Shown here: positions 8,497-63,357 of the stretch, piece after piece
Layout: each line of letters begins with the position of its first letter
Position numbering within the stretch: the first letter of the stretch is position 1
NCBI GenBank assembly: GCA_003614675.1
Contig: ML002214.1
Coordinates: forward strand, 1-64,000
Source of the DNA: Dimargaris cristalligena
Lineage: Eukaryota
DNA length: 64,000 nt
Direction of reading: 5' to 3'
Notes under the pieces: generated by a model
What the model was told of the DNA's origin: nothing
What the model saw: the letters and a program-made list of their open reading frames with translations, nothing else
Databases searched by the model: none
Made by a program: the position numbers and the translations under genes

Positions 8497-10008
8497 ATGT
8501 CTTCCGTCGGTACCCTCTACTCTCCCCTGGTCAACTTCCGCGCCTACAAGGCCCGCGTTGCCGCCGAATACAACGACCTTAAAATCGACCTCACCCCCGA
8601 GTACACCAGTGAAACCCGGGCTAGCGCCGAGTACTTGGCCAAGTTCCCCCTGGGCAAGTCCCCCGGCTTCACCACTGCTGACGGCCAGAACATCTTCGAC
8701 AGCAATGCCATCGCCTACTACCGTAAGTCTTTTATTCCTTTATTATGGTTAAGTGGTTCATGTTCCCGAAGTCGGATATGATGATGATTTATCAAGTTAT
8801 CCCTGTCTGAGTATTGGTAATATTTAAAATATAAAAAACCCTGCTGATAATACTTGTTCTGATCCTACTTTCACCCAACCGGTGATTCCGGGTGCAGTAC
8901 CTGGGTGAATGTTGTAACTAATCTTGGCCTGTTTTGGTATTCTTAAACTATACCCCATCCAACTCACTTCTCCTTAGTCGCCGGTCTGAAGAAGGATACC
9001 CAGCTTCTGGGCAAGGACCACCTCGAGACCACCCAAATCGTGCAGTTCATGATGTTCGCCGAATCCGAGCTGGTCTCCCCTCTGATGACCTGGTTCCTCC
9101 CCATCCTCGGCTTCGTTCCCTACAACCGACCCGTGGTCACCAAGGCCAAGGAGGAGGCCGTCCGCGCCCTCACCTTCCTGAACAACGTCCTCCTCGACCG
9201 CACCTTCCTGGTCGGCGAGCGCGTCACCCTGGCTGATATCGTCGTCGTCTGCAACATGATCGTCGCCTACAAGCGCGCTTTCGACCCCAAGTTCCGTGCT
9301 CCCTTCAAGAACTTGAACCGCTACTTCCTGACTGTCGTCAACCAGCCCCAGTTCGCCAAGATCATTGGCGCCGTTGAGCTGTGCAGCGAAGAGCCCGTCA
9401 TGGCCGCCCCCAAGAAGGAGCCCAAGGCCAAGAAGGAAGCCGCTAAGCCCAAGGCCGAAGCTGCCCCCAAGAAGGAGGCCGCCCCTGCCCCCGCTCAAGA
9501 CGACGAGGAGGAGAAGCCCGCCGCCCCCAAGGGCAAGAACCCCTTGGACTTGCTCCCCCCCTCCCCCTTCAACCTGGAGGACTGGAAGCGCTTCTACTCC
9601 AACAACGACACCAAGCCCGCCGCCATGAACTACTTCTGGGAGCACTTCGATCCCGAGGGTTTCTCCCTGTGGAAGGTCAACTTCAAGTACAACGACGAGC
9701 TGACCCGCACTTACATGTCTAACAACCAGATTGGTGGTTTCTTCGCCCGTCTGGAGCGTGCCCGCAAGTATGCTTTCGGTTCCCTGCTGGTGCTCGGTAC
9801 CGACAACGACAACGAGATCAGCGGCTACTTCGTCGTCCGCGGTCAGGAGGTCCCTTACGAAATCTACGATGCCGCTGATTACGAGTCGTACGATTTCGCC
9901 AAGGTCGACCCCACTGACGCCAAGATCAAGGAGGAAGTCGGTGACTACTTCGCCTGGGAAGGCCCTACCCTGCCCAAGCCTTGCGCCGACGGTAAGGTGT
10001 TCAAGTAA
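8497..10008 (+). CDS. TEF4: Translation elongation factor 1-gamma (eEF1Bgamma); exons 8497-8722 and 8978-10008
   Basis: GST-N (YLAKFPLGKSP, FDSNAIAYY), GST-C (TFLVGERVTLADI), K/A/P-rich linker and EF1G domain (FNLEDWKRFYSN, DGKVFK*). Strong C-ending codon bias; intron 8723-8977. Confidence 0.97.
8774..8865 (+). ncRNA. snR38: Box C/D snoRNA, snR38/SNORD1 family, intronic in eEF1-gamma
   Basis: C box TGATGA 8779-8784; guide AGTTATCCCTGT 8795-8806 (complementary to LSU rRNA ACAGGGATAACT) directly before D' CTGA; C'-like TGATAA; D box CTGA 8859-8862; terminal GGA/TCC stem. Confidence 0.88.
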
Positions 10009-11712: not shown

Positions 11713-11994
11713 CTATTGCTGCACGGTGGTTGTGGATTTACCTCTTAAGTTCTGTACAGCGGCTGAAGCTTTATGGCCCAAGTCCTTCGCAGTGGCGGCG
11801 GCTTGACTGCCGAAGCTCTTCGCAGCGACTTTTAGTTTATCACCCAATTTCGTCGTACCAGCTAAGGCAGTCTTTTTCAGGAGTTTCATAGAATCCCTGT
11901 TGATAGCAGGATTGGGCTGTGGCAGGGGCGAGGCCGTAACCAGGATGGCACCGATCAGAGTGACGGAGATGAAAAGTTGGGTGAGCTTAACCAT
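11713..11994 (-). CDS. Small secreted cationic peptide precursor A (93 aa; four 11-mer amphipathic repeats)
   Basis: Signal peptide MVKLTQLFISVTLIGAILVTA, then SP-LP-QP-NP and a Lys/Ala-rich mature part. Minus-strand TATATAAA near 12130. Frame conserved in the paralog at 61694-61963. Confidence 0.85.
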   Translation of the reverse strand: MVKLTQLFISVTLIGAILVTASPLPQPNPAINRDSMKLLKKTALAGTTKLGDKLKVAAKSFGSQAAATAKDLGHKASAAVQNLRGKSTTTVQQ

Positions 11995-35625: not shown

Positions 35626-37062
35626 CCATCACGAGATTCGTTTCTTATTTTTTTGGACTTGGTCCATCTTTTCCGTAGTTTAAATTCGAAACCTCAGATT
35701 TATAATAGCTCCACTGACTTCACCTGCAAATATGTTTTTATTGGTATATTGTTCTTTCCTTGTTACCTTTCCACCCTCTAACACACCAGTGTTTGTTATG
35801 TTTATGTAGTGCTTAACATGCCCACTCTGTTTATTTATTATTTTATTTTTATAGTTCAAGTATGGCATTTTCGCTAAAATAATAAAACTATTACCCCACC
35901 TTCGTCTCACAGACAATGGTATGTTCCAATAGAACTGTAAAGATACTTTGCTTTTGCTCTATAGGCAACTCCGAGACTTTTCACCTGGTGCCTTCGATGG
36001 GAAAATCGGCATGCGTTTATAGATTAAAGAGCAGTAACATCATTATAGCGATGTTCACCCAAGATTAGCCGGTTAAGTAGTTAGTCGATGGATGTCTTTT
36101 AGTGATGGGGCCTGTACACGTATGTCTTGTAGATTTGCGTAAGGGATTTTGAATCCGAGACAGTTAACACCGCATCCCGATAGGAGGAAGTCACATGTGA
36201 TTAGCGCACGTAGGTCCGAGTATCAATTAGTAAAGGTTATGTATACAGCAGACAGTGTCCTATTGTAACCAGCAATCAGCAATTGTCTGTTATACATTTG
36301 GCTAGGGGCTCCACACCCACCTCAGTGTCAGTGTTACTTTTATAGAAATAATGATATCCCTGAATCGCACTAAAGTAAATCCACGGCCACCCATGCTATT
36401 CACGGCAGATTATTTTTACTAGGCAATCGTGTTCCATCACAAGGCCTCTCGATGCGTACACTGCGAAACCCATTTTACTTTCGGCAGCTTGCTGAAGTGG
36501 GTTATCCCAGTTTAGGATAGGCTATATGATCTATCCCAACTCAAGGGTTAATCATGGAGGATCATCCCGAAGCAGAGAGTATGGAAAGTGAACCGTTTAT
36601 AAGGGATCTATACTGTAAATCTCACTTGGAGTACTCCGGATATCTTTAGTTGGTCAAAATACGCCAAGCCCAATTGATGTTACTGACAGTGGTAACACCC
36701 CACTATTCGGGTTAAAAAATTAACCGGTTAAGCTGAGCTACACTTTGGCCATCTTTCGGCAGTAAATGAGCAGCCGACTAGCAACTGTACTTATCATTTT
36801 AGTGGCAACTGGAGGAGAAACCCCATTATCAATAAACAGTATTTTAGAGCCGGTGCACTTCACAATTTGGGTATTTAAAAGCCAGTCTTTGGCCCCCTCT
36901 TATTTATATTCATCATTATCTAGCCATCTTCTTCCCGATCAACCAGTTATCTACAAGGTTCCCGCCAATTCCCTCGTTGCCATCGATACCAACTGCCATC
37001 CTCGCCTACCTGCAATACCTCATCCAACGTCCGTATTTCCATCCAACATTGTATATCCAATT

Positions 37063-37350
37063 ATGAAGGTTGCCTACTTCCAATTCGCGGTCGCTGTATT
37101 CATCTCCGCTGTTCTAGTCCCCCAAATCTCCGCCAGGGATCACGATGAACGCAAGCCCTCCGATGACCTGACCAACGCCGGCTCATTAGGTACTGGTGAA
37201 ACCGATCAGGGCAAATATATCCGCTACACCCATCTCAATCACCAACAGGCTCCAGACTCGGTCACCCGTAATGATAAAAGGAATCTGCACAATAATGGGG
37301 GTTACCGCGGTGGTATCCAGGGTGGTCGCTGGCCGACGATGTTAATCTAG
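37063..37350 (+). CDS. Small secreted orphan protein (95 aa) with a KR site before a Gly/Arg-rich 22-mer
   Basis: MKVAYFQFAVAVFISAVLVPQISA is signal-peptide-like; TATTTAAAA at ~36872; C-rich 5'-UTR; ends NDKR|NLHNNGGYRGGIQGGRWPTMLI*. Confidence 0.65.
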   Translation: MKVAYFQFAVAVFISAVLVPQISARDHDERKPSDDLTNAGSLGTGETDQGKYIRYTHLNHQQAPDSVTRNDKRNLHNNGGYRGGIQGGRWPTMLI

Positions 37351-59623: not shown

Positions 59624-60346
59624 CTATTCATTGTTAGGCGGACAGTTGTTAGCCCGGCTATGGCACTTGGACGTCGTCATATGTCTTTTCAAGACGTCTT
59701 CGCGAGGGTAGCTCTTATTACACTGTTGACAGTTGAAAGACCTTTCACCTGTATGAGTAAGTAGGTGACGATCGCGTCCATACCGGCGGACGAACACTTT
59801 TTTGCAAACCGGGCAGTCTAGGGTGGTTTTCAAATATGCTTTCATGTCTTTGTAGTACGGACTGGTTTCGTAAGCCCACGCTTGCACATCACTGAGGTCC
59901 CAGCTAACCTCCACGCCGGGATTTAGTGGCTTGAAATTCAGGACCGAATAGCTTCCGCTTCCCGAACCGGAACCACTGGCCTCGGCCCCAAGGCTTACGC
60001 CCCCAGACCCGGTCCCGTTGACCAACCCGTCGAAGGTGAACAACTCTTCATTAGAGTAAGCTTGTTTCACTTCATCATCATTTAAGTAGAGCTCGAGAAA
60101 GGTAATGTAGATGGCCAGCTCTTTACCGTTAACTGTAGAAATATAGTCCGACACTTCTTTCCATGATGCTTCCCTGTAGAAGGGTCCTAGGGCCAAATGG
60201 GCTGCTGCATCCTCGTAGCCAATATCGGGGCTTGATAAATTGAGTAGGTCGTTGAGTTTGATGCCCTGATTATCCTGTTCAGAACCGTGGCTGAGAGCGA
60301 CTGCGCCCAGAAGGAGTAATAGACCCGCTGCGCCAAAGAAACGCAT
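59624..60346 (-). CDS. Signal-peptide protein with C-terminal tandem C2H2/C2HC zinc fingers (candidate secreted TF effector)
   Basis: MRFFGAAGLLLLLGAVALSHG signal; acidic helical region; GS linker; CPVC-x12-HLLTH, TGERSF linker, CQQC-x12-H-x5-C. In-frame TGA 10 codons upstream with no intervening AG; minus-strand TATAAA near 60515. Confidence 0.85.
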   Translation of the reverse strand: MRFFGAAGLLLLLGAVALSHGSEQDNQGIKLNDLLNLSSPDIGYEDAAAHLALGPFYREASWKEVSDYISTVNGKELAIYITFLELYLNDDEVKQAYSNEELFTFDGLVNGTGSGGVSLGAEASGSGSGSGSYSVLNFKPLNPGVEVSWDLSDVQAWAYETSPYYKDMKAYLKTTLDCPVCKKVFVRRYGRDRHLLTHTGERSFNCQQCNKSYPREDVLKRHMTTSKCHSRANNCPPNNE

Positions 60347-61394
60347 AGCGGTGATGTTAGATAGCGGAGGAGATCAAGCTCAAACTAATTAAAGCGGCGT
60401 GATTGGGAGGTGTGGTGGCAATGTAATCGGAAAAATAGACTTGAAATAAAAGTAATGGACGATATCTCAGGTGGGGAGGGGATAGTTTGAATACTGAGGT
60501 GGGGTGACGACCATTTATAAAGTTGGAAAAACGATACCCACTCGACTGGGAGGGATAATGATGCGACCTACCAACTGGGATGGAGCATTATGCTGTGGTC
60601 GGTTTGTCTCTCAGTATCTTCAAAAGTATGAGCGAGTTACTCCAAAGTATTACCCTTATGGGCCTACCAATTAACTTGGGAGTACATGTCGCACTGTGGC
60701 TTGCATTATGGCTCCGCATGTTGGATATTTTCTTATTCACTTGTTCAATTGCTTATCTCTCGTTGCTGGAGCTTCCCCTTTCTACAGCGGCAGTTGACCT
60801 TCAAACCATATAAAGGTTATACTGCCCTTGCGAGAGAGTGTTCCATTGTATGGCAGAAATCACAGGGGGGCCTGGTATCACTCACCTCAATATATTTTTG
60901 GCCGAAAGTCCTATTTTCTTAAAAAAATCATCGACCATAAATACCTATTTATATTAATATTGATTGATTGCGTCTCTAATATAAAAGTCGGGAATAAGAC
61001 AAACGGAAAACCGGGAGGCAACGGCTGGGGTTATCTAGGGTTCACAGGGAATAGGGAAATGTCTAGGGGACTGGGGAAGCGGTCTACACAAAATAATGGA
61101 GCCAAGTTGCACGAACTCGAAGAGTGGCCCCCCAAGGGAAAGCAAACTATGCTGGTAATGAGATATCTACTTCATTAAGCCAATTCTCCATTTTACGGCT
61201 TAGTTGAATATTTACCCTATTTTCGAGACTTTAGGGGACAAAGGCAGTTGACTCCTATTAAAAAGGAATAAACGATACTAAAAAAAAAGTACCCTTAAAA
61301 TTTATAGCTCCTATAGCGTTACATTCAAATCTTAATCCAAGGTATACCAATATGTAATGGTTTGGAGGGTTGGTATCCTTTAATACGGAAAAGT

Positions 61395-63357
61395 CGATTT
61401 ATTTATTAATATTTTATAAAAAAACAGTTGCTTAATGAAGACCCCTATGAGTCATTCGCAGGCTTACATAGTAGTTGTACACTTGTGTGATTCACCATGT
61501 GGGATAAAACGACTAATGAACGTGGTTGTAGATATGCGTGTGCTTTCGTCGCAAAATTAATTGCGGTTCGACACCGCTGGGCCAGATAGGCTTTTGTGAT
61601 GATACCCGGTTGCCTGCCCCAACCTTGACCGATGTAATCAAATCGGTAATGGTGGTGGTGGTGCCTTGGGGCCGGTTATCAAATGTATGTTGGCTAGATG
61701 GTGTTAGCTCTTAGGAGCTGGCTCTTTTCAGGAATTGGGTCTGCAGTGGGCTTTCGCTGCACGGAGGATTTGATTTTACCGCCCAAGTTCTTCGCAGCGG
61801 TGACGAATTTGCTGCCAAGATTCTTTGCACCAGTCAAGGCAGTACTTGCCGCGTTTTTCACCGAAGCCCTGGTGGCAGGACTGGGCTGTGGCAGGGGCGA
61901 GGCCGTAACGAAGATGGCACCGATCAGAGCGACGGAGATGAAAAGTTGGGCGAGCTTAACCATAGTGAAAGGAGTAAGGGGGATGAAATTGAGATGTAGG
62001 ATAAAAGGGCAATGTATGACAGGGATGGTGCGGATGAAGTGGTATGGATAGAATGGGAGTTGCTATTGATATTGATTAGAAAGAAGGCGCTCTGCCTGGG
62101 GTATTTATATAATTTCCCAGCAGCCGGTCACCCAGCGTCCTCTTTGCCTCGTTCAACATTTCCTACCACTGGGTATCCTCCAAACGATCCCTGTGGATTC
62201 CTCCCAAAGTACCGTAGGTTAACAATCGCCTATAAACCACCAGCATCTCTACTACCCCTGCTCTAGGAATGTAACAAAGGGCTGGTTGATATTACAATGA
62301 TCTATGGTCGGTTCACAGTTGTCTATAGTCAGAGGGGTTGCCGAATGCACCTTTCCTCGACTGCCTCGTCTTTCTGGCCCCACGACTTTGTGGACGGTCA
62401 GCATAGTTTGACTCCCCACAAGCAGTCGATATTGTTCATCAATATGACCAACCGCTGAATATGGCTTGATCTCCGTAGTATAATGGGGTGTAGGATTCAA
62501 GATTGGAGTCAAACTGCTGGTGTATTCTTCACATCATTGTTCGTCAAGGAGATCCTTAGATATTGTGCCGATTATATTATCTCTCCCACTGCTCTGCCTT
62601 ACGGGCCGATCACTCCCTTTCCCTTCATTTCCCCTCCCTTCATTTCCCCTCCCTTCCTTTCATTTCACCCATCGCCTCTCTTCATATTTGAGTGATGGGA
62701 TCTCCCGTCCATATCTCTGTAATAGTTCAATATCTCATTCCTTTGGCTTAAGAACTGGATTGCCGTGATTACCTGTTCACTATATTTTCATCATAATCGA
62801 CCAGCCAACGCTCTGATCGACACTTTATATAAATTAAATGTAGGCTTATCCACCTTGCCTCTTTAGATATTATACTATCGATATCGCCCGCCTACCCCAA
62901 CTTCACCAAGCTATAACGAAATGCCGATGGGTGTTCTCGTTAGTTTACCCCCCTCCGTTTCCATATCACCAATATGACCTTACCGTGTGTCTGTCATACC
63001 ATATGTGATTTTGGCCAGAATGGCACTGTAGAATTGTAGGCATAGTATATGACTCTAGGTTGAGCGAGCTTAAACCAAATACATTTACTTATAATATAAA
63101 AATATGTTATACTGACAGTGCAATACTAAGTGTCCCATAGAATTGACTAAAGTATGGTCATCATTTCTGAAGCCTTCAAACCTAGTAGGATGGCTGTGCC
63201 GGGGGGTCTAACTGGTTGATACCTGCCAGCTGTTACAATTTACTAACTGTACCACTACAGAGTAGGGGTGGAGGTGTCTCTCTAAGCTAGTAGTAGCCAG
63301 TGCACTTCCAAACCATTACAATGTTGCTATTTTCCTATTATATTGGTTATGACCAAG
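61395..63357 (+). repeat. Segmental duplication copy B (paralog of ~10920-13500)
   Basis: Colinear similarity to copy A; lacks both MITEs and the ~370-bp insert. Confidence 0.9.
61694..61963 (-). CDS. Small secreted cationic peptide precursor B (89 aa; two 11-mer repeats plus C-terminal tail)
   Basis: MVKLAQLFISVALIGAIFVTA, SP-LP-QP-SP, then TGAKNLGSKFV TAAKNLGGKIK; paralog of 11713-11994. Confidence 0.85.
   Translation of the reverse strand: MVKLAQLFISVALIGAIFVTASPLPQPSPATRASVKNAASTALTGAKNLGSKFVTAAKNLGGKIKSSVQRKPTADPIPEKSQLLRANTI

Follow-up and report, generated by a model that had tools for sequence, protein, structure and literature searches.

A protein of Dimargaris cristalligena that joins a signal-peptide-like leader to two C2H2 zinc fingers is a candidate secreted nuclear effector

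The first 64,000 nucleotides of contig ML002214.1 of Dimargaris cristalligena (assembly GCA_003614675.1), referred to here as the window, carry on the minus strand a gene for a 240-residue protein in which a signal-peptide-like leader, an acidic N-domain and a Gly/Ser (GS) linker precede a C-terminal pair of C2H2 zinc fingers. We tentatively interpret this protein, at somewhat less than an even chance, as a lineage-specific candidate secreted nuclear effector whose fingers would read the DNA of a host. The interpretation draws on the precedent of the MoHTR proteins, which are secreted C2H2 proteins of Magnaporthe oryzae (the rice blast fungus), on the biotrophic haustorial lifestyle, on the conserved leader and on the Cys-free acidic N-domain. 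The parts of the protein are as follows, with window coordinates first and amino acid (aa) positions in parentheses.

60284..60346, minus strand: signal-peptide-like leader MRFFGAAGLLLLLGAVALSHG (aa 1-21), with suggested cleavage after G21; position and sequence are conserved in all relatives
60020..60283, minus strand: acidic, Cys-free N-domain (aa 22-109), predicted helical, the core of a lineage-specific family
59951..60019, minus strand: Gly/Ser-rich linker NGTGSGGVSLGAEASGSGSGSGS (aa 110-132), predicted local distance difference test (pLDDT) score 23-27
59822..59950, minus strand: spacer DVQAWAYETSPYYKDMKAYLKTT (aa 133-175), with two predicted helices, common to the relative P0018
59753..59821, minus strand: C2H2 finger 1 (aa 176-198), ligands C178, C181, H194 and H198, with Pfam and PDB matches
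59738..59752, minus strand: inter-finger linker TGERS (aa 199-203), TGEKP-like
59660..59737, minus strand: C2H2 finger 2 (aa 204-229), ligands C206, C209, H222 and then C228 or H229, recognition helix REDVLKRH
59624..59659, minus strand: tail SRANNCPPNNE (aa 230-240) and the TAG stop codon (59624-59626)

The open reading frame (ORF) occupies positions 59624..60346 and runs uninterrupted from the ATG at 60346 to the TAG, with no internal stops over 240 codons, in agreement with the intronless ORF described in the initial annotation. Judged from its sequence, it looks like a genuine gene with a single exon. Its codon log-odds score, with eight Pfam-confirmed ORFs of the window as the training set, was 0.187 bits per codon in frame, compared with 0.136-0.51 for the training ORFs themselves, -0.325 and -0.587 for the two remaining frames and, on the antisense strand, -0.134 to -0.578. 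By our own arithmetic for six frames and about 50% GC, roughly 0.04 stop-free runs of 249 codons are expected by chance per 64 kb. The 1.5-kb stretch examined around the gene was found with 0 differences and 0 gaps in DNA contigs of all four sequencing runs (two studies; the runs are possibly the window's own source), contiguous in three of them and as two overlapping pieces in the fourth. The window has a GC content of about 50%, with a GC content at third codon positions (GC3) of 0.53-0.81 in its genes, and it carries fungal housekeeping genes in long exons, encoding a Spb4-type helicase, MMS19, a MIF4G/MA3-domain protein, a Snf2/Brahma-type ATPase, an Alg9-like mannosyltransferase, EFL1 and Fe-ADH. 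The finger gene itself lies within a lower-GC, gene-poor stretch (GC 0.42-0.46 at 58-64 kb). When the window was searched by tblastn with aa 1-172 and seven family sequences (six distinct relatives), only the finger-gene locus was matched and no second copy was found.

Since the leader is central to the interpretation, the position of the start codon matters, and two elements upstream of the gene bear on it.

60374..60376, minus strand: in-frame TGA nine codons 5' of the ATG, which bounds any N-terminal extension
60514..60519, minus strand: TATAAA motif 168-173 bases 5' of the ATG, read from the letters, a possible core promoter element

The stop-to-stop frame begins at 60373, directly 3' of the TGA. 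It had been proposed that this TGA, with no acceptor AG after it, excludes an upstream coding exon. The TGA is present and none of the 27 bases from it to the ATG at 60346 forms an AG, but an acceptor-like ttctttggcgcag lies within codons 3-6 of the ORF, and because of it the AG-free stretch alone is insufficient for the exclusion. The relatives provide the better argument: the ATG at 60346 appears to be the true start because every relative starts at the same Met, with MR(F/L/P)(F/V)G or, in one case, MYFIG. Furthermore, since residues 1 and 168 have no Met in between and the frame is closed nine codons upstream, the conserved N-domain can be translated only together with the leader. The sole exception would be an upstream exon spliced at ttctttggcgcag, and even so most of the apolar run would be retained.

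The leader shows the layout of a signal peptide, in which R2 is followed by a 17-residue apolar run (F3-S19), by S-H-G at positions -3/-2/-1 and then by SEQDN, so that the signal-peptide-like N-terminus noted initially holds at the sequence level. Over 10 residues its Kyte-Doolittle mean reaches 3.02 at best. The leader is the only hydrophobic segment (maximum later 11-residue mean 1.45, at aa 76-86), and the polar C-terminus PPNNE has no KDEL/HDEL ending. A simple home-made rule filter (hydrophobicity cut 2.4 and a basic residue in the n-region) was used to assess the leader. It passed 5 of the 74 window ATG-ORFs of at least 80 aa and, among the 15 of at least 200 aa, the finger gene only; it also passed six of nine family sequences compared with none of nine unrelated proteins. 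Because this crude filter is poorly selective, conservation of the leader is the stronger argument. In all nine family sequences the start coincides with the aligned Met, the residue aligned with -1 is A or G, and the apolar N-terminal run spans 12-19 residues, versus at most 8 in all nine unrelated controls. The initial annotation had allowed that homologs might uniformly lack the hydrophobic N-terminus; it is kept in nine of nine. A mitochondrial presequence was considered and rejected by eye, given the single Arg and the Leu-rich apolar core.

The charges flanking the apolar run are R2 before it and E, D, D after it. According to the positive-inside rule, a positive charge before and negative charges after such a run place the C-terminal part of a protein on the luminal side. 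A membrane-tethered factor with cytosolic fingers is therefore disfavoured, since the charge pattern puts the fingers in the lumen. Tethered transcription factors combine an anchor with a cytosolic DNA-binding domain; here the only hydrophobic segment is N-terminal and comprises 17 apolar residues.

At the other end of the protein, the two DNA-binding-type fingers and their TGERS linker were confirmed. Pfam zf-C2H2 (PF00096) matched two stretches at 29.9 bits against a cut-off of 25.2, and zf-C2H2_4 covers aa 204-225. The last 68 aa matched 130 distinct PDB sequences at E <= 0.001 (best E 3.8e-34 to 1e-9), and the top matches were DNA-bound C2H2 proteins, namely ZFP568, Aart, CTCF, ZBTB7A and Zif268. 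Both fingers are of the classical kind: finger 1 has the exact spacing C178-x2-C181-x12-H194-x3-H198, and finger 2 has the core Tyr and Leu with the spacing C206-x2-C209-x12-H222, then x5-C228 or x6-H229. Read by eye, the helix of each finger has Arg at positions -1 and 6, and that of finger 2 also has Asp at position 2; Arg at -1 and 6 and Asp at 2 are the classical guanine-contacting residues. The fingers thus resemble those of Krueppel-type transcription factors (ZFP568, CTCF, Zif268) in finger spacing, in a TGE(K/R)-type linker and in the Arg/Asp contact positions. Those factors are nuclear without a leader, whereas the window protein carries two C-terminal fingers behind a signal-peptide-like N-terminus, and it further differs in that its finger 2 ends H-x5-C or H-x6-H.

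Between leader and fingers, the acidic helical domain and GS linker of the initial annotation were also recovered, with helices predicted at low confidence. The region aa 22-110 has an isoelectric point of 4.05, with 17 D+E versus 5 K+R and no Cys; Cys is confined to the finger region of the 240-aa protein. AlphaFold2, run on a 6-row alignment, gave a mean pLDDT of 41.9 and a predicted template modelling score of 0.32, with helices at aa 31-109 at low confidence (pLDDT 53-63). No Pfam family was found for the N-domain, the best candidate being ACC_central in the relative P0005 (E 0.0018, 17 bits versus a cut-off of 23.2). Among Atlas neighbours there was no usable match with aa 1-170, and the Atlas model of P0005 (pLDDT 0.43) reached a best feature score of 0.78 and template modelling scores of 0.32-0.44, all under the thresholds. 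A role of the N-domain in uptake or activation, as proposed initially, could be suggested purely by inference. An E-x-S-G-S-G-S-type stretch like that of the linker is also present in P0006, P0013, P0009, P0017 and P0018.

The relatives were collected through several searches. A word-based search with the whole protein examined 2946 candidates and returned four matches, which were the window protein itself and three unrelated finger proteins at 21-26% query coverage. An exhaustive HMMER search of aa 1-170 against 1.84 billion representatives returned 10 matches at E <= 0.001. Four of them, listed here, are hypothetical proteins of D. cristalligena.

P0005: 123 aa, 51% identity, E 1e-27, query 1-112 aligned with target 1-111
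P0006: 156 aa, 39% identity, E 5.8e-19, collinear from residue 1
P0009: 1491 aa, 37% identity, E 4.2e-10, collinear from residue 1
P0013: 175 aa, 31% identity, E 1.4e-4, collinear from residue 1

The others (P0007, P0008, P0010, P0011, P0012 and P0014; 486-3565 aa) matched through 4-13 stretches within query aa 52-162 and were set aside as compositional or repeat matches; the sequence of P0010 was inspected and is that of a tandem-repeat protein, and the other five were judged from the table. Two profile searches gave 3 matches among 8000 scored sequences and 5 matches among 4187 candidates, and in the second of these the relatives scored E 1.7e-47 to 1.8e-51. The first yielded P0017 (238 aa), which is collinear with the window protein from Met1 through the tail (241 aligned columns at 34% identity, E 5e-27) and has two C2H2 fingers by Pfam, an HTNEKPF linker and a canonical H-x3-H in finger 2; the tail of the window protein aligns with its GAEGPPGNV. 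The second yielded the closest relative, P0018 (190 aa; 52% over aa 1-110). In tblastn, P0018 aligned at 45% over its aa 18-183 and the alignment reached base 59804. Its annotated model, with the end ...FDCPFALITPVLI, stops precisely at finger 1's first Cys pair, and for this reason the short models may be truncated gene calls.

Altogether, in about 15 billion proteins searched, the N-terminal module was found in six further distinct proteins, all from D. cristalligena and all annotated as hypothetical. The family therefore consists of seven distinct sequences, the window protein (P0001), P0005, P0006, P0013, P0017, P0018 and P0009/P0016, with collinear homology from Met1 to about aa 110. Two subgroups are apparent, P0001, P0018, P0005 and P0006 versus P0017, P0013 and P0009. 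Over aa 1-110 the window protein is 25-52% identical to its six relatives; identity between most members is 25-58%, and one pair reaches 80%. The C-termini vary: some members have nothing further, others a truncated finger, a finger pair or a membrane protein of 1300 aa. Host contamination as the source of the family was rejected, given the 25-52% identity to the members, the absence of any other fungus among the relatives that the HMMER and second profile searches found, the GC content of about 50% and the GC3 of 0.53-0.81.

Some observations on individual members are worth recording. In P0009/P0016 (1491 and 1554 aa, from two independent annotations), leader, N-domain and GS linker are joined to a large protein that passes the membrane several times and has, at its C-terminus, an AI-2E_transport match (E 2.3e-11). 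P0009 resembles P0017 over its first ~165 aa (58% over aa 1-110) and then diverges; the models could represent a true fusion or merged adjacent genes. P0015, a cluster mate of P0006 at >= 90% identity with the same first 30 residues, is labelled as Syncephalis pseudoplumigaleata, another mycoparasite, which could reflect cross-contamination between projects or a shared gene. At the DNA level, the GS-linker coding stretch 59952-59987 has short near-matches (33-35 bases with 2 mismatches) on other contigs in each of the four runs, and some of these have high depth. They are other Gly/Ser-coding loci, and paralogues of the leader and N-domain family could be among them.

The initial annotation held that no part in the secretory pathway is known for C2H2 arrays with TGEKP-like linkers. 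This is contradicted by MoHTR1 and MoHTR2 (PMC7672089) and MoHTR3 (PMC10189765) of M. oryzae, which these papers describe as signal-peptide C2H2 proteins that are secreted and seen in rice nuclei. According to the same papers, 20 M. oryzae proteins pair a secretion signal with a DNA-binding domain, half of them C2H2 (PMC7672089), and MoHTR3 is ordered as an N-terminal signal peptide, a signal for nuclear localization (NLS) at mid-protein and a C-terminal C2H2 domain (PMC10189765). The window protein is similar to the MoHTRs in having a putative secretion signal at the N-terminus, a C2H2 domain, a length of less than 300 aa, a lineage-restricted distribution and a biotrophic parasite as its source, and it shares with MoHTR3 the order of signal peptide first and C2H2 last (PMC10189765). 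By the properties that define the MoHTR class, its DNA-binding domain (IPR007087 / PF00096) scores 29.9 bits against 25.2, and R2, the 17-residue apolar run and S-H-G agree with a secretion signal by simple sequence rules only. The low later hydrophobicity (maximum 1.45) and the polar end indicate no transmembrane helix, endoplasmic reticulum (ER) retention or glycosylphosphatidylinositol anchor, the last point being judged from the sequence by eye.

The differences from the MoHTRs are also clear. Their host is a plant, whereas that of the window protein would be another fungus. MoHTR1/2 were modelled on a single-finger GAGA protein, whereas the window protein has a pair of fingers joined by a TGEKP-like linker. 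It adds an acidic, helical-predicted domain of ~90 aa and a GS linker, common to finger-less paralogues. Finally, secretion and nuclear delivery were shown for the MoHTRs, whereas the window protein is known from sequence alone. No Magnaporthe protein appeared among the source-named matches of the word-based, HMMER and profile searches, and no direct sequence comparison with the MoHTRs was made.

The assumed parasitic lifestyle fits as well. The initial annotation had guessed at a mycoparasite, and the only relatives found are from D. cristalligena, a member of the haustorial Dimargaritales. A study of this order (PMC9866270) describes its members as parasites of Mucoromycota and some Ascomycota that use an appressorium and a biotrophic haustorium, were grown on Mucorales and have genomes of about 20-30 Mb.

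If the protein is a secreted nuclear effector, the product would enter the ER via a cleavable signal peptide of about aa 1-21 and then be secreted. The mature protein of about 219 aa would be soluble and consist of the acidic helical-predicted domain, the flexible GS linker, the short spacer and the basic C-terminal finger pair. After release at the interface of parasite and host, it would be taken up by the host cell and transported to the host nucleus, where the finger pair would bind to a short G-rich site in host DNA and the acidic domain would alter host transcription. We infer all of these steps past translation, that is, cleavage, secretion, uptake, nuclear entry, DNA binding and the host effect.

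Several findings weigh against this interpretation. Fingers are not constant in the family, as four of the six D. cristalligena relatives lack them in the annotated models. The leader filter lets through the five window ORFs mentioned above and fails three of the nine family sequences, although marginally: P0006 and P0015 score 2.29 against the cut of 2.4, and P0017 has Tyr in place of Arg at position 2. Within the fingers, Arg stands at the canonical core Leu position of finger 1, and finger 2 has an unusually placed last ligand (x5-C or x6-H). An N-K-S sequon at N210 lies inside finger 2, which could be spoilt if the sequon is glycosylated in the ER; P0017 has no such sequon. No classical NLS was recognised by eye, and no NLS prediction was made. 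In addition, fungal nuclear activators such as Msn2/4 and Adr1 are ordinarily laid out in this way too, with an acidic domain ahead of two C2H2 fingers at the C-terminus.

This last point leads to a first alternative, an unlikely one, in which the protein is a conventional regulator acting on genes of the fungus itself. The acidic region would be an activation domain, the fingers would sit on the fungus's own promoters, and the N-terminus would be unused for secretion or would tether the protein to a membrane until release. The layout common to fungal activators, fingers of the classical DNA-binding type and the lack of Cys outside the fingers all agree with it. It leaves the leader unexplained, however, because the leader is kept in nine of nine family sequences, the finger-less ones included. 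The absence of Met between residues 1 and 168 means that no leaderless isoform could keep the N-domain. Tethering and release are a poor fit to the charge pattern (R2 before the run, E/D after it), from which luminal fingers are predicted, and the 17-residue apolar run is short for a membrane anchor.

A second alternative, which we also consider unlikely, accepts the leader and places the protein outside nuclei, in the secretory pathway or beyond the cell. The N-domain would be the working part, acting at the cell wall, at the interface or in adhesion, and the fingers, a lineage-specific addition, would have some binding partner other than DNA, or none at all. The N-terminal module is indeed the element common to the family, with most relatives finger-less in their models. 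In P0009/P0016 the module precedes the multi-pass membrane protein with the AI-2E_transport match, which would place it outside the cytosol if the model is right. Yet fingers of the DNA-contact type are retained in two members that are only 34% identical, the finger-less models may be truncated gene calls, as P0018 with its end at the finger 1 Cys pair illustrates, and to our knowledge zinc fingers have no extracellular use. Finally, a silent or decaying gene chimera, in which an intact ORF is unexpressed or functionless, is improbable: the fast evolution of the family (25-58% identity over aa 1-110, one pair 80%), the slight deviations in the finger motifs and the lower-GC, gene-poor location would suit it, but the 240-codon frame is intact with in-frame codon bias, all zinc ligands are present, and full-length collinearity with the 238-aa P0017 at 34% identity would be hard to keep without selection.

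Returning to the candidate secreted nuclear effector, a bolder and rather doubtful form of this interpretation is that leader, acidic N-domain and GS linker together form a portable delivery module of Dimargaritales that is fused to varied cargoes, and that in the window protein and P0017 its cargo would be a two-finger transcription factor, brought from the haustorium into the host fungus's nucleus. The variety of cargoes would arise by gene duplication and shuffling. Oomycete RXLR and Crinkler effectors are built in a comparable way, with a signal peptide and a conserved N-terminal module ahead of varied C-termini. The window family resembles them, by gene models only, in that its N-terminal module is common to paralogues with different C-terminal parts. 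Neither of their motifs, RxLR(-dEER) and LxLFLAK, which lie shortly behind the signal peptide in those families, is present in the 240 aa, so the protein does not belong to either class by motif.

Very little is known about how biotrophic haustorial mycoparasites control their fungal hosts, and among paper titles we found none on nuclear effectors of mycoparasites or on effectors of Dimargaris. The concept of a secreted C2H2 nuclear effector is already known from the MoHTRs of the rice blast fungus, and the novelty is the candidate in a mycoparasite. It would differ in having a fungus as host where the MoHTRs have a plant, in belonging to an early-diverging lineage, in its two linked fingers and in an N-terminal module that is lineage-specific and common to paralogues with other C-termini. 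The window gene and P0017 are concrete, conserved candidates. If the effector interpretation is true, the MoHTR-type strategy of secreted transcription factors extends from plant pathogens to fungus-on-fungus parasitism and to Zoopagomycota. If the module is indeed portable, this would represent the first case of a DNA-binding regulator delivered from fungus to fungus, along with a new uptake module in early-diverging fungi. If the leader has no function, what remains is just a lineage-specific regulator family whose N-terminus is unusual.

Other ORFs of the window also have signal-like N-termini. Two small minus-strand ORFs, at 61694-61963 and 11713-11994, encode paralogues of 89 and 93 aa with a signal-peptide-like start (MVKL.QLFISV.LIGAI.VTASPLPQP). 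The two share 63% identity over 64 aa (E 5e-23), lie 50 kb apart and have no Pfam family; one of them is 1.3 kb from the finger gene, and the pair is possibly a small secreted-protein family. On the plus strand, a 194-aa ORF at 36766-37350 that belongs to no Pfam family has an N-terminus (MSSRLATVLIILVATGG) that is strongly hydrophobic and signal-like; it lies in a stretch with a GC content of 0.44. Lower-GC patches at 10-14, 22-24, 36-42 and 58-64 kb (0.41-0.47 versus 0.51-0.58 elsewhere) hold four of the five signal-like ORFs that pass the filter. These patches may be merely intergenic DNA, or they may be islands of secreted-protein genes. The sole Rfam match in the window at the gathering score was a snoR38 C/D-box snoRNA on the plus strand at 8770-8869 (45.4 bits versus 45).

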